From assembly GCA_965209035.1 (NCBI GenBank), contig OZ242372.1, forward strand, positions 928,001 to 992,000: a DNA stretch of 64,000 nucleotides, read 5' to 3'. Under the pieces are notes generated by a model, which ran no database searches, was not told the origin of the DNA, and was given only the letters and a program-made list of their open reading frames with translations. Each line of letters starts with the position of its first letter. Positions within the stretch are counted from its first letter, which is position 1. Shown one piece after another: positions 25,584 through 36,238 of the stretch. The position numbers and the translations under genes are program-made. Source of the stretch: Gammaproteobacteria bacterium (GTDB lineage Bacteria > Pseudomonadota > Gammaproteobacteria > CBDBNL01 > JAAOII01).

Positions 25584-25612
25584 AGTATTGTTTGTATTGT
25601 TTGTTTATTTAT

Positions 25613-25765
25613 TTAATAGTATAGTAATAAATCTTGGCGGTGTTTCATCATGTCTTAATGATACGATAGTGTTTAATAATAGAGTAATAAATCTTGGCGG
25701 TATTTCATCATGTCTTACATGATACGACAGTGTTTAATCATAGAGTAATAAATCCAGGCGGTGTT
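25613..25765. repeat. ~60-bp tandem repeat, about 2.4 copies
   Basis: AGTAATAAATCTTGGCGGT..TTCATCATGTCTTA.. at 25623 and 25683, partial at 25744. Confidence 0.85.
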
Positions 25766-25835
25766 GCCGATACGAGTTCCGAGGCAGGTTCCGATACGGG
25801 TTCCGATGCGAGTTAATTGCCCGTTCACAAATCAC

Positions 25836-26891
25836 TCACAAATGCCGAACCCGAATATTCGGGCGGGCGGCGGCGATGGTTTCGCTGATGCAATGGCGAT
25901 GGCAATGCGCGGGCAACTTCTCAAAACAGGTGATGGCGACACGGCGGTAATCATCCAGCTTGCTTTCCAGGTCTTGCACCAGAGATTGTTTATTTTGCAG
26001 TTCCCGGCGATACCGGACAAACGGCTTTTCGGTAACGACGGCGTTTTTGGACGCCCGCCGAATATGGTAGGGGACACCGAGTCCGGGCATGCCCGCATAC
26101 GGAATGCCAACCTTCGGTAAGATCCTTGCCATGTCCTCGCGGGAAAAACCGGGTTTGTGACTGACCGGATTGGCGCGCACATCGCACAACAGACGCACCC
26201 GCTCGGCGATGAGAGTATTCACATATCTTTCAAACGAAATGCCTTCATAGCCGATGGTAAACAGCGTCTTTTCATCTGTCGCATCCTCCGTATCCTCCGC
26301 AGAATCAGCCGTGGCGAAACTGCCAAGGCGTGCCGCATCATAATAAGGATACTTGCGGGAGACGATGTTTGCCAGAGCCGCACCGCGCAATTTTCCGTAA
26401 GTCCGGATGAGTTCCGACAGACTCTGCAAATCCAACGCCCTGATCTGCGGCGGGCTAACTCGGGCGCGCAAATACCCGCCCTCTGCACCTGAAACGCCGA
26501 CACATCCTTTGCCGACAAGATACCGCAAATCCAGATCGCATGACAAGGAATAACAGCCATCCTCGTAGGGGATGAATTCATAAAGATACGCGCTGTCGCC
26601 GCGGGCAAATTCTTGTCCGAACAAAAACAACAATTTTTGGATGTCGGTTTTGGCGGTGCTTTCACTCACACGGCCCACACCGCCCTCGCCCGCATCACTC
26701 ACATCACCTAACCCGGCGATAAGGCGTAACAGAACACGCTGGCGATAATAGCGCGGAGATCTTGCCGCTTCCCGGGGATTAAACTTTAATTTTGTCTCGC
26801 CCGCTTCGGGCAAGTCATCCGACTCAAACAGGTCGGCCGACATTGGCGGCAGCCGCGATCCTGAAGATCCGGAAGATCCCGAAGCATTCAT
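25836..26891 (-). CDS. DUF488-domain protein with N-terminal wHTH-like extension
   Basis: LFTIGYEG, DVR.NP.S.KPGFS and C.E..P..CHR motifs. Confidence 0.8.
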   Translation of the reverse strand: MNASGSSGSSGSRLPPMSADLFESDDLPEAGETKLKFNPREAARSPRYYRQRVLLRLIAGLGDVSDAGEGGVGRVSESTAKTDIQKLLFLFGQEFARGDSAYLYEFIPYEDGCYSLSCDLDLRYLVGKGCVGVSGAEGGYLRARVSPPQIRALDLQSLSELIRTYGKLRGAALANIVSRKYPYYDAARLGSFATADSAEDTEDATDEKTLFTIGYEGISFERYVNTLIAERVRLLCDVRANPVSHKPGFSREDMARILPKVGIPYAGMPGLGVPYHIRRASKNAVVTEKPFVRYRRELQNKQSLVQDLESKLDDYRRVAITCFEKLPAHCHRHCISETIAAARPNIRVRHL

Positions 26892-27823: not shown

Positions 27824-29353
27824 TTATTCTTCATCAAACAGGCCGGGAGGGTTCCCAGACCGGGGCGGCTTTTCCGCGTCTGTCGCCGGGACATCACGCT
27901 CACCGGGCGATGCTGCTGCTTCCGTTCCCGGTCCCAGTTTCTGTTCTTGCTCCTTTTCGTTACCCCGTTCGCCGGCAGTTCCCCGCGAAGGTGTCGAGGA
28001 CACCGAGGGCGCATAGACGCGCCGCACCTGTGTATCCAAGCCGCCGCGCGCAAGGCGTAATTGCAAAATGTCGCCGGGTTTTGTATCAAACGCGTTTTTG
28101 ACGGTCCGACCCAGACTGTCCAACGCCAAGGCGTAGCCGCGTTCGAGAACACGTGTTGGATTAACGGTCCGCAACGCCTCTTTTTGGGTTTTCAATTCCA
28201 CTTCAACCTTTTGCATCCTGTTGCGCATGCGTTCTCGCAACAACGATTTTGCATCTCGCAACTTGTAGCGCAACTCGGCAAGCTTGGTGTCCGCCCCGCT
28301 CCGGTGCAAACACTCCGCCAGGCGAAAGAGATCCTCTCTTTTGTCGCTCAACAGAATACGCAACCCGCCGATGAGATCCTTTTGAGCACGGCGTAATCTT
28401 TCGGCAAAAGCCCGAACGGGGTTGGCAAACAGTAACCGTCTTTGCATCTCGTCGTTGCGCTGCATCTGTTCTTCCAATCTTTCCAGCAGTTCGTTGCGCA
28501 TTCTGCGACTATCGGAATGCAGGTCACGGATCACGGCGGCGGAGTCTAAGCTGAGTTCCTCGGCCGCGGCCGAAGGCGTCGGCGAGCGTTTGTCCGCCGC
28601 CAGATCACACAGCGTCAAATCAATTTCGTGGCCAACCGCACTAACAACCGGCAGGTCGCTCGCGGCAATCGCGCGCACCAGTTCTTCTGTGTTGAAGCAA
28701 CTCAAGTCTTCCGCCGAGCCGCCGCCGCGCGTAATCAGCACCGCATCAAAGCGGTTGAGTTGATTGGCTTTCGCCAGGGCGGCGACGATCTCCTGTGCCG
28801 CCCCCTTCCCTTGCACCTGTGCGTGAATCAGCGACACCCGCATGCACGGCATACGCCTGTCCAAAACTTGATTCAGATCGTGCAGGGCGGCGCCACTTTT
28901 CGAAGTGATCACACACAAACGCAGGATGACAGGCGGCAAGGGTTTTTTGCGTTCGGCATCAAACAGTCCTTCCGCATGCAGTTTTTGTTTAAGTTTTTCA
29001 AACTGAGTATGCAGATCGCCGACGCCCTCGCCGCGGATCTCCCGGGCGACGAGTTGAAACCGACCTTGCGATTCGTAAAAGGCAGCCTTACCGGACAGGA
29101 CGACCATATCGCCTTCCTTGGGCGCGGGATGCACCCGCAGATTGGCGTTTTTGAACATCACACAACTTAACAGGGCCTGCTCGTCTTTGAGAGAAAAATA
29201 CCAGTGTCCCATTTTGGAAACGGTGAAGCCGGACACCTGCCCGCGCACATGAATGCTTGCCGGAAAATGCTCCGCCAACAGGGCCTCCAACTCCGCAAAG
29301 ACCTGTGAAACACCCAGCGGGTGATTGGCGGAAGTTGAAATGTGCATACTCAT
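27824..29353 (-). CDS. xseA: Exodeoxyribonuclease VII large subunit
   Basis: GHWYFSLKD, RGGGSAEDL, SAVGHEID, TPSAAAE, VLERGYA. Confidence 0.96.
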   Translation of the reverse strand: MSMHISTSANHPLGVSQVFAELEALLAEHFPASIHVRGQVSGFTVSKMGHWYFSLKDEQALLSCVMFKNANLRVHPAPKEGDMVVLSGKAAFYESQGRFQLVAREIRGEGVGDLHTQFEKLKQKLHAEGLFDAERKKPLPPVILRLCVITSKSGAALHDLNQVLDRRMPCMRVSLIHAQVQGKGAAQEIVAALAKANQLNRFDAVLITRGGGSAEDLSCFNTEELVRAIAASDLPVVSAVGHEIDLTLCDLAADKRSPTPSAAAEELSLDSAAVIRDLHSDSRRMRNELLERLEEQMQRNDEMQRRLLFANPVRAFAERLRRAQKDLIGGLRILLSDKREDLFRLAECLHRSGADTKLAELRYKLRDAKSLLRERMRNRMQKVEVELKTQKEALRTVNPTRVLERGYALALDSLGRTVKNAFDTKPGDILQLRLARGGLDTQVRRVYAPSVSSTPSRGTAGERGNEKEQEQKLGPGTEAAASPGERDVPATDAEKPPRSGNPPGLFDEE

Positions 29354-29686
29354 TATGTTGATTCAGTGATTCGATTAAATCTCTCGCTCTTGTCTAATCC
29401 TAGTTTGTCCGCCTGTCCTTAAACGCTACTCCCGCATCTGCCCGCAAACAGCAAGTCGGGCGAGCCGGACTATTTAACTCTTGATTGTCCTGCCTTCCTT
29501 GATTTCTATTGATTCGTATTCGCACCTGAATTGCTTTTGGAACTTTTGGGTTTTTCATGCTTTTCGTGTCTTTCATATCTTCCGGATCCCTTTCAAATCT
29601 CCTGCGAGTCTCTTCCCCGCATCAATATCAATAAAGAGAGAGCAGTACAAAAGCACGGAGTTCCTGTCTGCGAAACACCCGAAACA

Positions 29687-29760
<74 letters not shown>

Positions 29761-29947
29761 TCGCTATTATATACCTTGTTTGTCGGTTTGTTGGCATGAT
29801 CTTGCGGTTTCTTACCTCTGCCAAGATTTTTACCCGCGGGCATGCATCACAGAGAGGGGGGGGATATAGAATATTGCGTATTGCGTATTGCGTATTGCGA
29901 GCCGGCAAGGGCGGGCGGACTATGTAAACCAAACCAAACTGCCATAT

Positions 29948-30066
29948 CTATTCGGGACCTATTCGGGGCCTATTCGGGACCTATTCGGGGGCTATTCGGG
30001 GCCTATTCGGGGCCTACTCGGGGCCTACTCGGGGCCTACTCGGGGCCTACTCGGGGCCTACTCGGG
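29948..30066. repeat. 11-bp minisatellite (CTA[T/C]TCGGGGC), about 11 copies; a 7-bp (TATTGCG)x4 run lies nearby at ~29872-29899
   Basis: Directly visible tandem units. Confidence 0.9.
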
Positions 30067-30227
30067 TTGCATCTTATCCCAAATACTCAGGCATTCGTCG
30101 GCCCGCCCGCTTCCTTCTATTTCCCCTATTCCCTCTATATAATGCTCCTTTCCATACAACGGGAAAACAGTTCACAGATTTGCCGCTTTTTGTCTTATAA
30201 TTTCGTCTAAATGCAAATGAATATATT

Positions 30228-31085
30228 ATGACAAAGCACTCACCCTATTTGTTGCGGCTGTTCTTCTTGTTCTTTGGATTGTTCTTCGGGGCAATCCTTT
30301 TGAGCGGTTGCTCCGAACCCGACGAAGAAACACTGGCACTGATTGAAAATATGACAGTAGAAACAATCTCTCTGCCGGAAGGCAACGGTCATCTCGCCTA
30401 TGTGCGTGCCGGCGATGTCGGCAGTCAGAAGGTGATTTTTCTGCACGGAACGCCCGGAGATCGCGGGGCATGGAACGACTACATTGCGGATGTCCCCGCA
30501 GGGTTGGAATACATCCTGGTGGACCGCCCCGCATTTGGCGACAGTGATCCGAGGCGAGTGCTTTCCCTTGAAGCGCAGGGAAAGATTCTTGCCGCTTTAT
30601 TGCAGCCGGATGCGCTGGGGAATCTTCCGATATTGGTGGGACATTCTTATGGCGCCACCCTGGCCGCCTGGATGGCGGCCGAATACCCGGAAAAAGTCGG
30701 GGCAATCTTTTTGCTTGCCGGCTCCATGACTCATCTGCTGGACAGACCTTACCTGTTGCAGAGATGGGGCGTGCATCCGCCTTGGCGATGGCTAATTCCG
30801 GGCGGCATGCGCAAAGCCAACGACGAGGTGGTTGCTCTGGACGACGAACTGGTCGGTTTTGAAGAAAAGATGCGCAGCATCACCGCACCGGTTGTGGTTT
30901 TACAAGGACGCAAAGATTTTCTCGTTTCCTATAAAAACTTAAGGGTGATCCGAAAAAACATGATCAACTCCGCCAAAATAGATATCACCCTGTTGCAAGA
31001 CGCCGGACATTTCTTACCCTGGAACTACACGGAGCAAGTTAAATCTCTGATACAAAAAGCGGTGAACTATAGCCGCACGCATTAA
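30228..31085 (+). CDS. Alpha/beta hydrolase lipoprotein
   Basis: Lipobox LSGC, HGTPG oxyanion loop, GHSYG nucleophile, D (GRKD) and H (GHFLPW). Confidence 0.9.
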   Translation: MTKHSPYLLRLFFLFFGLFFGAILLSGCSEPDEETLALIENMTVETISLPEGNGHLAYVRAGDVGSQKVIFLHGTPGDRGAWNDYIADVPAGLEYILVDRPAFGDSDPRRVLSLEAQGKILAALLQPDALGNLPILVGHSYGATLAAWMAAEYPEKVGAIFLLAGSMTHLLDRPYLLQRWGVHPPWRWLIPGGMRKANDEVVALDDELVGFEEKMRSITAPVVVLQGRKDFLVSYKNLRVIRKNMINSAKIDITLLQDAGHFLPWNYTEQVKSLIQKAVNYSRTH

Positions 31086-31152
31086 AGAAAGGGAATGATA
31101 CACTTGTTAACCCATGAAAAATAAGTATCATTAATATTAGAGGCAAGACTAA

Positions 31153-32224
31153 ATGATAATGCTTCCGGCTTTTTTAACGCTATTAAAGACAAGAAAGAAA
31201 GAGTATCAATAACAACCGTTATGCTTTGTTTGAAACTTTCTGCCTTATAATTCACAAATAATGATAATGCTTCCGGCTTTTTTAACGCTATTAAAGACAA
31301 GAAAGAAAGAGTATCAATAACAACCATTATGCTTTGTTTGAAACCTTCTGCCTTATAATTCACAAATAATGATAATGCTTCCGGCTTTTTTAACGCTATT
31401 AAAGACAAGAAAGAAAGAGTATCAATAACAACCGTTATGCTTTGTTTGAAACTTTCTGCCTTATAATTCACAAATAATGATAATGCTTCCGGCCTTTTTA
31501 ACGCTATTAAAGACAAGAAAGAAAGTGTCAATAACAACCGTTATGCTTTGTTTGAAACCTTCTGCCTTATAATTCACAAATAATGATAATGCTTCCGTTC
31601 ACGCGGCTTTTTTAACGCTATTAAAGACAAGAAAGAGTATCAATAACAACCGTTGTGCTTTGTTTGAAACCTTCTGCCTTATAATTCACAAATAATGATA
31701 ATGCTTCCGGCCTTTTTAACGCTATTAAAGACAAAAAAGAAAGTGTCAATAACAACCGTTATGCTTTGTTTGAAACCTTCTGCCTTATAATTCACAAATA
31801 ATGATAATGCTTCCGTTCACGCGGCTTTTTTAACGCTATTAAAGACAAGAAAGAAAGAGTATCAATAACAACCGTTATGCTTTGTTTGAAACCTTCTGCC
31901 TTATAATTCACAAATAATGATAATACTTCCGGCTTTTTTAACGCTATTAAAGACAAGAAAGAAAGAGTATCAATAACAACCGTTATGCTTTGTTTGAAAC
32001 CTTCTGCCTTATAATTCACAAATAATGATAATGCTTCCGGCTTTTTTAACGCTATTAAAGACAAAAAAGAAAGAGTATCAATAACAACCGTTATGCTTTG
32101 TTTGAAACCTTCTGCCTTATAATTCACAAATAATGATAATGCTTCCGTTCACGCGGCTTTTTTAACGCTATTAAAGACAAAAAAGAAAGTGTCAATAACA
32201 ACCGTTATGCTTTGTTTGAAGCCT
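31153..32224 (+). repeat. Tandem array of ~108-bp units (9 full plus 1 partial)
   Basis: Unit starts (ATGATAAT) at 31153, 31261, 31369, 31477, 31583, 31695, 31801, 31917, 32025 and 32133; unit lengths 106-116 bp. Confidence 0.97.
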
Positions 32225-35200
32225 ATCGCAGCAATCACAAACCGACCGGCCGGGAGATTGTTATCCCCTTTATTAATTGGCGGATTTTTGCTCCCCCTTC
32301 TTTCCGCTTGTGAAAGCGGAGCTGGAAGTGATGGCAACAGCGCCGTCGCTGACGTTCCCGGGCCGGTTATCCCTTCCGCTCTCCCCGCGATCTCTGACTT
32401 GGAAGTCGTACCGGATCGGAATCTATTGAACTTCAGTTGGACCAATCCGAACCGAAATGACATAGTCGGGTTTAATATTACCCGGAGCAGAGCGGAACAG
32501 GACGAAATATTCTCACTCACGGAAGTTGATACCCGCCCTTTGGCAAAGATACGCTATATCATGGATGACGAAGATCTTAGCGAAGCCCGTATCTACACGG
32601 TGAGTGTGACGGTAATTTATGAAGGCAGCCGGGTAGCCGTGTCAAACTTTTTACATCGCCGACCCGGCGAAAACACAGACGGCGACGGATTCCCGGATAT
32701 TATAGATGCGGACGACGACAATGACGGAATTGATGATTATGTGACAAGCGGGATAGCGTTGGATGCTTGCCCGAGGGGTGAAACCGATTGGCTCGCCAAT
32801 GCGACGACGGACAACGATCGTGACGGCTGTCGCGATCGCGATGAGGACCCGGACGATGACAATGACGGGGTGACGGATGCGAACGATGCGTTTGCCAAGG
32901 ATGCCTGTGCGAGCATTGACACCGATAACGATACGCAACCGGATACTCTGGTTACCAACTGCTCAACTTCTTTGGCGGAAGACCCGGACGACGACAATGA
33001 CGGTGTAAATGATGCGAACGATGCGTTTGCCAAGGATGCTTGCGCGAGTATTGACACCGATAACGATTCGCAACCGGATACTCTGATTGCCGGCTGCCCA
33101 ACTACTTTGGCGGAAGACCCGGACGACGACAATGACGGGGTGACGGATGCGAACGATGCGTTTGCCAAGGATGCCTGCGCAAGCATTGACACAGATAACG
33201 ATTCGCAACCGGATACTCTGGTTCCCAACTGCCTAACTACTTTGACGGAAGACCCGGACGACGACAACGACACAGTAAATGATATTGCAAGCGACGGGAC
33301 CGAATTGGATCTGTGCCCGAGAGGCGAGACCGCCTGGCTTGCCAATGCGACAACGGACCATGATGGTGACGGCTGTCGCGATCGCGATGAGGACGCGGAC
33401 GACGACAATGACGGAGTTGATGATTATGTGACAAGCGGGATAGCGTTGGATGCTTGCCCGAGAGGCGAGACCGCCTGGCTTTCCAATGCGACGACGGACA
33501 ACGATCGTGACGGCTGTCGCGATCGTGATGAGGACCCGGACGATGACAACGACGGGGTGACGGATGCGAACGATGCGTTTGCCAAGGATGCTTGTGCAAG
33601 CATTGACACCGATAACGATACGCAACCGGATACTCTGATTGCCGGCTGCCCAACTACTTTGGCGGAAGACCCGGACGACGACAACGACACAGTAAATGAT
33701 TTTGCAAGCGACGGAACTATCTTGGATCGCTGTTCACCGGGGGAAATCGGCTGGCTTTCCAATGCAACAACGGACCATGACGGTGACGGCTGTCGCGATC
33801 GCGATGAGGACCCGGACGACGACAATGACGGTGTAAACGATGTCTTCCGGACGAACGGGACTGCGTTAGATGCCTGCCCGAGAGGCGAGACCGGTTGGCT
33901 TTCCAATGCAACAACGGACCATGACGGTGACGGCTGTCGCGATCGCGATGAGGACCCGGACGATGACAATGACGGGGTGACGGATGCGAACGATGCGTTT
34001 GCCAATGATGCCTGTGCAAGCATTGACACAGATAACGATATGCAACCGGATACTCTGGTTCCCAATTGCCAAACTTCTTTAAAGGAAGACCCGGACGACG
34101 ACAACGACACAGTAAATAATTTTGCAAGCGACGGAACTATCTTGGATCGCTGTTCACCGGGGGAAATCGGTTGGCTTTCCAATGCAACGACGGACCATGA
34201 TGGTGACGGCTGTCGCGATCGCGATGAGGATACGGACGATGACAATGACGGGGTGGCGGATGCGCAAGATCTGTGTCCGCGAGGTGTGCTCCGTTGGAGT
34301 TCGGGTTTGACGACAGACCAGGATCGTGACGGTTGCAGAGATCGCGACGAAGATGCGGATGACAACAATAACAGTTTGATAGAAATCAATACGCTGGACG
34401 CACTGGCATTGCTGCGCGATGACCTGAACGCCGACGGTGCGGACGATGGCTATCTTGCCGAAATTGTCGTGCCGGATTGGGCGGGCTGTCCCGCTGCAGG
34501 TTGCATTGGCTATGAATTGATGCGCTCTCTCAATTTTAGTGATATCCATTCTTACGCATTAGGCAGTACCAATAGAAGTGTGTGGACCGGCGGCAACGGC
34601 TGGTCGCCGATTGGCTCTTGCGCCGCCGATGACAGTTGTCTATTCTATAGCGGAATTTTTGACGGCAATAATCATAGTATTTCCAATCTGTTCATCTCGG
34701 CGGGTAATGCGGTTAATGGCGTAGGTCTGTTTGCCGCGACGAGTGGGACTGTGCAAAACTTACATCTGCCGGCTGCGAGTGTCAGCGGCGGCGGCAAGAA
34801 TGTGGGCTTGCTGGCGGGTAACGGGCGCAATGCCTATTTTGAGAATATTTGGGTTTCGGGAACGGCGATAAGCCCGGCTGCCGATGGCATAGGTACTTTT
34901 GCCGGGGATGCCTCGGGTGCAACTTTGATGCAAATAGTTGTTAATGGCAGTTATGTGTCCGGCAATGCAAGTGTCGGCGGTTTGGTCGGCAACGGCGAAA
35001 GGGCCCGAGTTTTTCGTTCGTCCGTGTCCGGTGCGGTCCTATTGGGTAACGCATCTGTGGGCGGTTTGATCGGAGCCGGCGAAAGCAGCCGGATTAGATT
35101 TTCATCCGTGTCCGATGGCAGCGTATCCGGCACCGAAAATGTCGGCGGTCTAGTCGGGGCCGGCGGAAGAACTCGCATCACCTCTTCGTCCGTGTCCGGC

Positions 35201-36238
35201 AGTGTTGTATTTGGCAGCGGCAATTTTGTCGGCACTCTGATCGGAGACGGCAGTAATTCTCGGATTAGTTATTCGTCCGTCTCGGGTGGCAGCGTATCCG
35301 GCCGGGAGTCTGTCGGCGGCCTGGTCGGGCGTATAGAGGGCCGGAATTCTCAAATGATTCATTCCTATACTGCCGAGGTTAATGTATCCGGCACTCTAAA
35401 TGTGGGCGGCCTGGCAGGACACAGCACTGATACTCCGATGAGTCATTCGTATATTCTCGGCGGCACCGTATCCGGCAACTCAAATGTCGGCGGCTTGATT
35501 GGACAGGGCGCGGATTTTGTGCTTAATCATTCATATGCACTCGGAAGCAATGTATCCGGCAATGATGAAAATGTGGGCGGTTTGGTCGGCGCCGGCACCG
35601 ATATCCGGATTAGCGATTCGTATGCGTCCGGCGGCCCCGTATCCGGTAATTCAAGTGTCGGCGGTCTGGTCGGCTCCGGCACAGGCGGTCTAATTAGGCG
35701 TTCATACGCATCCGGCGGCCCCGTATCCGGTAACTCAAATGTCAGCGGCCTACTCGGATCCGGCACAATGTCTTCCCTCGATTCTCATTGGGATAAGAAT
35801 ACTACCGGTCAAGCTCTATCCGGCGTTTTTGGCGTGCTTCCCAGATCTACAAGTGACTTGCAAGCACCGATTGGTGCCGGCAGTAGTATCTACTCGCTTT
35901 GGGGGGATGTCTGGTGCAATCCGAACACAATTGAAGTGATAGAAAGTCGGGCACAACCTGCCGCAGACTTTGTCCGTGTTTGGAATTTCGGCAGCAGGAC
36001 TCAATATCCCGCCCTGTACTGCACACCGGGCGGAATTGCGGTCCAACGCCCCGATGATGCGTTTCCCGCGGATGCTTGTGCAAGTACAGACATTGACGGC
36101 GACGGTTTTCCGGAGGATCTGATTGTCAACTGTCCGGCAACCACATCCTTGCTGGCGGATAATTGTCCGACAGTTTTCAATCCGACACAGGCGGATACGG
36201 ACAACGACAATACGGGCGACGCCTGTGACAACGACTAA
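32207..36238 (+). CDS. Giant surface lipoprotein: FN3-like domain, thrombospondin type-3-like Ca-binding repeats, GLUG-motif beta-solenoid (alternative GTG start at 32189)
   Basis: Lipobox LSAC; many DxDxDGC/DPDDDND repeats; repeated VGGLVG/VGGLIG; terminal DNCP..NP.Q.D.D.D..GDACD. Confidence 0.88.
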   Translation: MLCLKPIAAITNRPAGRLLSPLLIGGFLLPLLSACESGAGSDGNSAVADVPGPVIPSALPAISDLEVVPDRNLLNFSWTNPNRNDIVGFNITRSRAEQDEIFSLTEVDTRPLAKIRYIMDDEDLSEARIYTVSVTVIYEGSRVAVSNFLHRRPGENTDGDGFPDIIDADDDNDGIDDYVTSGIALDACPRGETDWLANATTDNDRDGCRDRDEDPDDDNDGVTDANDAFAKDACASIDTDNDTQPDTLVTNCSTSLAEDPDDDNDGVNDANDAFAKDACASIDTDNDSQPDTLIAGCPTTLAEDPDDDNDGVTDANDAFAKDACASIDTDNDSQPDTLVPNCLTTLTEDPDDDNDTVNDIASDGTELDLCPRGETAWLANATTDHDGDGCRDRDEDADDDNDGVDDYVTSGIALDACPRGETAWLSNATTDNDRDGCRDRDEDPDDDNDGVTDANDAFAKDACASIDTDNDTQPDTLIAGCPTTLAEDPDDDNDTVNDFASDGTILDRCSPGEIGWLSNATTDHDGDGCRDRDEDPDDDNDGVNDVFRTNGTALDACPRGETGWLSNATTDHDGDGCRDRDEDPDDDNDGVTDANDAFANDACASIDTDNDMQPDTLVPNCQTSLKEDPDDDNDTVNNFASDGTILDRCSPGEIGWLSNATTDHDGDGCRDRDEDTDDDNDGVADAQDLCPRGVLRWSSGLTTDQDRDGCRDRDEDADDNNNSLIEINTLDALALLRDDLNADGADDGYLAEIVVPDWAGCPAAGCIGYELMRSLNFSDIHSYALGSTNRSVWTGGNGWSPIGSCAADDSCLFYSGIFDGNNHSISNLFISAGNAVNGVGLFAATSGTVQNLHLPAASVSGGGKNVGLLAGNGRNAYFENIWVSGTAISPAADGIGTFAGDASGATLMQIVVNGSYVSGNASVGGLVGNGERARVFRSSVSGAVLLGNASVGGLIGAGESSRIRFSSVSDGSVSGTENVGGLVGAGGRTRITSSSVSGSVVFGSGNFVGTLIGDGSNSRISYSSVSGGSVSGRESVGGLVGRIEGRNSQMIHSYTAEVNVSGTLNVGGLAGHSTDTPMSHSYILGGTVSGNSNVGGLIGQGADFVLNHSYALGSNVSGNDENVGGLVGAGTDIRISDSYASGGPVSGNSSVGGLVGSGTGGLIRRSYASGGPVSGNSNVSGLLGSGTMSSLDSHWDKNTTGQALSGVFGVLPRSTSDLQAPIGAGSSIYSLWGDVWCNPNTIEVIESRAQPAADFVRVWNFGSRTQYPALYCTPGGIAVQRPDDAFPADACASTDIDGDGFPEDLIVNCPATTSLLADNCPTVFNPTQADTDNDNTGDACDND

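Follow-up and report, generated by a model that had tools for sequence, protein, structure and literature searches.

A tandem array of ten start-region units precedes a large lipoprotein gene in a gammaproteobacterial genome

Results

Ten abutting units lead into one lipoprotein gene

The subject of this analysis is a tandem array in a 64,000-nucleotide window (G000:C1:928001-992000) of a gammaproteobacterial genome of 2.24 Mb, which is assembled in two contigs and has 49% G+C. Positions are those of the window unless they carry the contig prefix C1. An alpha/beta-hydrolase gene ends 66 bp upstream of the array, and the array itself runs into the beginning of a gene for a 1343-residue lipoprotein (Table 1). 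Tandem Repeats Finder (TRF) reports it at 31152-32224 with a period of 108, 9.8 copies, 92% matches, 5% indels and a score of 1762. Units were delimited by cutting at a recurring AATGATAAT anchor and start at 31152, 31260, 31368, 31476, 31582, 31694, 31800, 31916, 32024 and 32132. The nine full units measure 108, 108, 108, 106, 112, 106, 116, 108 and 108 bp, and the tenth is partial and enters the gene. Neighbouring units abut without spacers, and the array is poorer in G+C (32%) than the chromosome. This is the structure of a bacterial intergenic minisatellite, or variable-number tandem repeat (VNTR), in which non-coding unit copies lie head to tail with nothing between them.

All nine full units contain a T6 run, a purine tract (GACAAGAAAGAAAGAG and variants of it), a start codon and a frame of nine codons, and in each the stop codon of that frame is the TAA within a perfect TATAAT. 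The encoded peptide is MLCLKPSAL in six of the nine and MLCLKLSAL in units 1 and 3; unit 5 agrees with the six except that it starts with GTG. The frame is lengthened to 15 codons in units 4 and 6, where a GTG lies in frame 18 nt upstream. We call these frames decoys: they are shortened copies of the first residues of the lipoprotein signal peptide, and unit 10 is the only one that continues, from ATG 32207 through the 1343-codon frame to 36238. The original prediction had described a ten-fold tandem amplification of a promoter and start region, with a perfect TATAAT in every full unit and a single unit entering the 1,343-residue open reading frame (ORF), and the TRF result, the unit table and the absence of spacers bear this out. 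Its statement that most units encode MLCLKPSAL holds for the six, with units 1, 3 and 5 departing from it as described.

When aligned, the units fall into types that follow one another as a a a b c b c a a, with a b/c hybrid at the end, and any two of them differ in 0-14 columns, units 1 and 3 being identical. Unit 4 differs from unit 6 in one column and unit 5 from unit 7 in five; both pairs are far closer than units 4 and 5 (13 columns), so the pair 4-5 has been repeated as 6-7, the higher-order dimer that had been predicted. The predicted 8-bp insert of units 5, 7 and 10 is likewise present in the alignment, where it changes GCTTCCGGC to GCTTCCGTTCACGCGGC upstream of the T6 run. Units 4, 6 and 10 share a 2-bp loss together with an A>G change (GTA to GTG). 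Variation in the number of AAAG copies, also predicted, accounts for unit 5, which has one AAAG fewer, and leaves aside both the 2-bp loss and an AAAAAAG variant in units 6, 9 and 10. Variants are thus common to non-adjacent units, which indicates repeated unequal exchange between units, in agreement with the unequal crossover first proposed. This pattern gives good support to a history in which a tandem duplication came first and unequal recombination or slippage then expanded and reshuffled the copies.

Table 1. Features of the array and its surroundings, followed by the other start-region arrays of the genome.
Feature	Position in window	Strand	Description
Array of ten head-to-tail units	31152..32224	+	106-116 bp, modal 108; 32% G+C
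TATAAT boxes (n=9, one per full unit)	31246..32123	+	Starts 31246, 31354, 31462, 31568, 31680, 31786, 31902, 32010, 32118; perfect in 9/9 full units
Decoy starts (n=9)	31221..32122	+	ATG 31221, 31329, 31437, 31543, 31761, 31877, 31985, 32093; GTG 31655
8-bp insert, unit 5	31596..31605	+	Alignment
8-bp insert, units 7 and 10	~31814-31823 and ~32146-32155	+	Alignment; ~14-24 nt into the unit
Promoter-like site TTGTTA-16-TATCAT	31104..31131	+	Consensus scan, 9/12 matches; unique DNA before unit 1
Second promoter-like site	31131-31160		Consensus scan; at edge of unique DNA before the array
1343-aa lipoprotein gene	32207..36238	+	ORF; Pfam GLUG 7e-11; begins MLCLKPIAAITNRPAGRLLSPLLIGGFLLPLLSAC
Alpha/beta-hydrolase gene, 285 aa	30228..31085	+	Lipoprotein-like N-terminus; Pfam Abhydrolase_1 2e-19, Abhydrolase_6 2.4e-13
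tRNA	29687-29760	-	Rfam; upstream of the hydrolase gene
uvrD start-region array			116 bp x 4.9
recN/radC junction array			332 bp x 5
iPGM-gene start-region array			165 bp x 3.6
AIR-synthase-like start-region array			92 bp x 3
SnoaL-like start-region array			247 bp x 2.9

A paralogous gene carries the same leader in single copy

A blastn search with unit 7 returned ten matches in the array and, elsewhere in the genome, one 48-nt match of 75% identity in the leader of a paralogous gene (E 0.015), all others being at chance level. The genome search that the original prediction had suggested therefore finds the unit at this locus only, bar that weak match, and an interspersed repeat family of the MIRU, REP or Correia-like kind is ruled out by the same confinement. 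The paralogue in question is the closest relative of the lipoprotein gene, a 1235-residue open frame at C1:1308991 with 62% identity over the first 200 residues. Its leader (C1:1308891-1309100) is colinear with a stretch made up of one unit junction and the last unit, and reads, in single copy, TTTGA.., TGCCTTATAATT (12/12 identical), 42 nt, GACAAAATGGAAAGAG, the start region and the signal peptide. After TGCCTTATAATT the spacing is 42 nt in the paralogue against 44 nt in the unit, followed by GACAA..GAAAGAG, with GACAAAATGGAAAGAG as the counterpart of the purine tract GACAAGAAAGAAAGAG of the array. The TATAAT of the paralogue lies ~105 nt upstream of its start region, and the leader holds no internal repeat. 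Because the two leaders are colinear, the unit appears to be the normal promoter-leader-start module of this gene pair, present once before the one gene and ten times before the other. The box, leader and start anatomy of the original prediction is supported by this comparison; the adhesin rheostat that it built on that anatomy is a possible function.

Decayed older units were sought upstream of the paralogue leader, where no direct repeat was found and the best local alignment was matched by 53 of 300 shuffles. The unique DNA before unit 1 is homologous neither to the unit (31 of 300 shuffles score as well) nor to the DNA upstream of the paralogue (143 of 300). A protein search of five genomes of the family gave at best 31-36% identity outside the genome studied here, the other four being without the locus. 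In a collection of genome contigs the search returned two distant hydrolase relatives (31-32%), in Pseudomonadales metagenome-assembled genomes, and nothing closer. Metagenome contigs gave 0 exact matches to the 27-nt unit junction and 0 hydrolase relatives.

The conserved box resembles a promoter element

The last TATAAT lies 83 bp upstream of ATG 32207 and, judged by sequence and placement, is likely to be the -10 box of the lipoprotein gene; the units may reasonably be taken as putative promoters. The block TGCCTTATAATT, which bears the TATAAT, is the longest identical block in the alignment of the paralogue leader, and it occurs three times outside the array against ~0.3 expected on a rough estimate. 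Furthermore, a copy of GCCTTATAAT stops 10 nt short of the mature 5' end of tRNA-Pro(GGG) at C1:311037, the textbook position of a -10 element, and is also found upstream of a lysS-like gene, a methylase gene and an ABC-ATPase gene.

Sequencing depth at the array

In Logan contigs from three runs (X1, X2 and X3) of one sample, probably the source of the assembly, one contig ends at 31181 and the next starts at 32191 in every run. Word depth in the flanking contigs is 20.4 and 22.3 (X1), 23.3 and 23.8 (X2) and 30.4 and 34.3 (X3), or 20-34 overall. In the bins of the array the summed word depth reaches 133, 126 and 152, respectively, with an overall range of 105-152; as unitigs overlap, this sum is not a copy number, and copies per cell were not derived from it.

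Raw reads from a fourth run, X4, of another sample (~12 in 100 of its reads were read) are 90-99% alike to the locus, 48 of 53 of them at 90-95%. Their depth is ~0-6 on 30200-30805 and from 32321 on, with zero reads on 30806-32320 at a thin coverage throughout. The covered parts are the first two thirds of the hydrolase gene and the lipoprotein gene (32321-33200). X4 may represent a related strain or species that lacks the array region or has a differing one, its coverage being too thin to decide.

Small RNAs, peptides and minus-strand frames

In a search of 29000-33000 at E up to 1, Rfam matched only the tRNA, and no terminator-like site was found on the plus strand of the array. The hairpin before the T6 run is GC-poor, at -0.8 kcal/mol, or -3.2 with the 8-bp insert, and neither value beats shuffled sequences; for the units and the true leader, on both strands, the fold was likewise no more stable than in shuffled controls (z 0.09 to 1.11). 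The units therefore do not have the terminator and stable fold in every member that would mark a multicopy small-RNA array.

Two minus-strand frames pass through the array, of 151 residues (31082-31537) and 111 residues (31792-32127). Both stay open only as long as the unit length is divisible by three, as 108 is, and they are broken at the 106-, 112- and 116-bp units. The 151-residue frame was considered as a gene and set aside, Pfam giving no match. Gene callers may nonetheless annotate such minus-strand frames, so the array, with nine false starts and a spurious 151-residue frame, carries a warning for annotation.

Clustered regularly interspaced short palindromic repeats (CRISPR) were also considered and rejected, since the units abut without unique spacers. 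Elsewhere in the genome, at C1:1956421-1963216, there are two long CRISPR-like arrays with a period of 62-63, in which a constant part GTCAAGGGGGGCAATAAAATTTCTACTGTTGTAGAT alternates with variable parts.

Other gene starts in the genome are amplified in tandem

TRF on the whole genome gave 387 rows, 288 of them with a period of at least 40. A crude six-frame filter for non-coding arrays (no long frame covering the array, period at least 30, at least 2.5 copies, at least 80% matches) retained 32 long-period arrays. Nine of these 32 were flagged for a long frame that begins within them. Three of the nine were dropped: C1:1123666 and C1:1261458, whose translations look non-genic by eye, and C1:1288512, where the first start of an amidase gene lies 53 nt past the array. 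Each of the other six arrays contains the start codon of the gene downstream; these genes encode RadC, an AIR-synthase-like protein, UvrD, iPGM (gpmI here), a SnoaL-like protein and the 1343-residue lipoprotein. The units of the uvrD, gpmI and AIR-synthase-like arrays were read through: each holds the start and first codons, and only the last copy enters the gene. Nine arrays were flagged by the filter, and by the filter only, as containing the 3' end of a gene.

At C1:381464-382130, before the minus-strand gene of a 1874-residue lipoprotein of the same family, three different arrays follow one another, with units of 16 bp (GCGCATTAAAAAAG[CA]T, six copies), 106 bp (three copies) and 9 bp (ATGAAAAAA, five copies). 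At C1:818678-819359 two related AT-rich repeats of 41 bp form about 17 units, most of which contain TATATAAT- or TATAGAT-like words. The units end 37 bp before the start of a 375-residue minus-strand gene and could be another array of stacked boxes or an array of binding sites. A non-coding 102-bp x 7.9 array at C1:1564260-1565370 is flanked on both sides by a direct repeat of ~100 nt and is thus a higher-order repeat.

The lipoprotein and the neighbouring genes

The lipoprotein has a signal peptide of the lipoprotein type with the lipobox LLSAC (by eye), calcium-binding TSP3-like DxDxDG repeats and a GLUG beta-helix part, and its coding repeats occupy 32846-34251. Its first 200 residues have 97 matches within the genome. 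An in-frame GTG at 32189, common to this gene and the paralogue, is an alternative start; as the ATG of the paralogue aligns to ACA here, we leave the start as either ATG 32207 or GTG 32189. By eye, no Shine-Dalgarno sequence was seen at working distance before either codon.

Between the minus-strand tRNA and the hydrolase start at 30228, in the likely control region of the hydrolase gene, lie two arrays of short units, TATTGCG x 4 at 29872-29899 and CTATTCGGGGC x 10.8 at 29948-30066. Further away, at 25612-25807, a 60-bp x 2.5 array is directly followed by a 12-bp x 3.4 array, just past the 3' end of a minus-strand DUF488 gene (25836-26891).

Discussion

The array is, in our judgement, probably a tolerated minisatellite with at most a modest and unselected effect on expression. 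According to this model, a segment of ~108 bp, comprising a -10-type box, a leader of ~85 nt and the first six codons of the gene, would have been duplicated in tandem, and unequal recombination or replication slippage between the copies would have led to ten reshuffled ones. Tandem duplications would arise throughout the genome; those inside genes would be purged by selection, and those that straddle a gene boundary or are intergenic would persist, since one intact copy of the gene stays. The array can be tolerated because each unit is a complete box-leader-start module, and any exchange leaves the gene intact behind the last unit. Protein would be made from that unit only, and the nine upstream would each amount to a spare box and a decoy start. 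If the box is active, as its conservation suggests, the spare copies would add read-through transcripts, and the number of copies would shift expression gradually. It could not turn the gene off: after any exchange a complete module still stands upstream of the gene, so an on/off switch of the kind known from short-repeat loci cannot operate here. The level of expression may change in either direction, upward if the boxes fire, or downward if transcription comes from upstream and the decoys or untranslated stretches cost output. Finally, arrays of the same build also precede uvrD, radC and gpmI, and for this reason we favour a general mutational habit filtered by selection over a device specific to the lipoprotein.

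A number of observations weigh against this account. The contigs fail to span the array, so that the number of units per cell cannot be read from them. None of the other long-period non-coding arrays of the genome reaches the ten copies found here, which could hint at selection over mere tolerance. The TATAAT of the units has neither a -35 partner nor a TG extension, a simple sigma-70 consensus scan found no site inside the units, and 966 further copies of TATAAT occur genome-wide on both strands outside the array. GCCT before TATAAT was tried as an extended genome-wide motif and rejected, GCCT being outside the 15 most enriched 4-mer prefixes. By a rough estimate, a 12-nt identical run such as that shared with the paralogue would arise by chance in about one in five alignments of ~65-70% identity. 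A 25-nt part of the unit, the part that bears the TATAAT, is missing before the first unit, and its derivation from codons 6-13 of the gene was not significant (3193 of 20000 shuffles); in the paralogue the same derivation likewise lacked significance (19763 of 20000). A DNA search of 41 genomes for an orthologous locus matched two, in the hydrolase part only.

The alternatives differ mainly in where transcription begins and in what selection has made of the array. It is possible, if somewhat unlikely, that the array is a selected copy-number rheostat or contingency locus, in which each unit would have an active promoter, array length, altered often by unequal exchange, would set the level of the lipoprotein across the population, and selection would keep the array long. 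The intact boxes of all nine full units, with ATG in eight, would fit this idea, as would the TATAAT block common to the paralogue leader, the top copy number and the membership of the gene in a large, fast-changing surface family with its 97 matches; PMC12817950 adds a precedent in Mycobacterium tuberculosis, where promoter repeats were proposed to alter promoter strength. However, start-region arrays also precede uvrD, radC and gpmI, for which surface variation would be pointless; the boxes stand without a -35 or extended -10 element; and the units are so alike that their conservation tells little about constraint. A contingency locus of the simple-sequence type, with repeats of 1-9 bp, was rejected outright: here the unit of 106-116 bp brings its own box, leader and start, and the last one stays intact. 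The broader proposal that start-region minisatellites form a working regulatory layer, at this locus and at least five others, we regard as rather improbable. If it were true, units with their promoter box and decoy start would change in number at high frequency, and every cell lineage would arrive at an expression level of its own, both for a surface lipoprotein and for genes of repair and metabolism, with stacked promoters raising output and decoy starts lowering it. The ten copies would then point to selection in favour of a high or variable output of one lipoprotein from a hypervariable family.

Slightly less probable still is a long decoy leader, in which transcription would come only from upstream, either starting at the TTGTTA-16-TATCAT site or reading through out of the hydrolase gene, and additional units would lower expression because their short frames act as upstream ORFs or untranslated stretches, with ribosome capture or Rho-dependent polarity as the mechanism. 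The only promoter-like sites with a -35 element are the two just before the array, the scan found no plus-strand terminator-like site between the hydrolase gene and the array, and every unit has a start codon with a stop nine codons on; a transcript from 31104-31131 could thus pass through the entire array. That site matches the consensus at 9 of 12 positions, though, and is not significant alone, 30900-32500 holding two such sites against a shuffle mean of 4.0. Nor was a Shine-Dalgarno sequence seen at working distance before the decoy ATGs, and the position of the TATAAT in the paralogue fits a promoter within the unit. Units that are each a gene for a small RNA or peptide, the other possibility raised by the original prediction, have very little to recommend them: a promoter-like box followed ~30 nt on by a T6 run invites the idea, which fails on the missing terminator, the ordinary folds, the empty Rfam search (the tRNA apart), peptides that are merely truncated beginnings of a signal peptide, and a 151-residue minus-strand frame that has no Pfam match and breaks at units whose length is not a multiple of three. 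An assembly artefact over a true locus of one or two units, which the original prediction had raised as a single-copy case, is the most improbable of all. No read or contig was seen to span the array; still, because array words are several-fold deeper than the unique flanking contigs in all three runs and the ordered unit variants are resolved, which a collapsed or stuttered assembly would not yield, an artefact is unlikely, and many other arrays of this kind exist in the genome.

Should copy number set expression, the locus would be a clean natural case of graded control by a promoter minisatellite without off-switching, in front of a gene from a large and variable family of surface proteins. 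The bacterium is uncultured and probably host-associated. As the evidence stands, the locus is mainly the largest documented case of this genome's habit of amplifying gene starts.

Among known systems, the tandem small-RNA genes LhrC1-5 of Listeria have units of ~110 bp with strong intrinsic terminators and stable folds. The present array is LhrC-like in its ~110-bp tandem units with a promoter-like box, and its units differ in having neither terminator nor stable fold. Contingency loci built of short repeats, for example the 7-bp repeats upstream of hmw1A and hmw2A of Haemophilus influenzae or homopolymer tracts, consist of 1-9 bp units whose slippage alters promoter spacing or reading frame and so tunes or switches the expression of surface genes. 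Here, too, repeats stand before a surface gene; the 108-bp unit, however, is self-contained and cannot switch that gene off. Ehrlichia ruminantium has numerous long-period non-coding tandem repeats that actively expand and contract and vary between strains. It belongs to another phylum and has another lifestyle, and strain variation has been demonstrated there. Its small genome is described as rich in tandem repeats (PMC10710844).

The promoter VNTRs of M. tuberculosis are the closest published parallel. Those described in PMC12817950 have units of 57 bp (dop), 58 bp (lpdA, VNTR3690) and 54-56 bp (cysG, QUB15) and lie directly before genes; copy number differs from one lineage to another and also within cultures, expansion and contraction are ascribed to slippage or recombination, and a graded change in promoter strength is proposed. 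The two systems share head-to-tail segments, promoter-bearing there and putatively so here, directly before a transcription unit. The present unit is twice as long, adds a whole leader, a start and six codons, and is present in ten copies. In M. tuberculosis both the transcription starts and the variation in copy number are documented, and at the present locus they are putative.

A further likeness is within the genome itself, where the other start-region arrays also repeat leader, start and first codons in tandem and let the last copy alone enter the gene. Belonging to the same genome, they share its mutational background, although their unit sequences are unrelated to the one described here. 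The lipoprotein array differs from them in having the most copies, in the conserved TATAAT block of its unit and in the gene downstream, which encodes a surface protein and not a housekeeping enzyme. It is of the ordinary bacterial minisatellite kind, and the largest start-region case in this genome.

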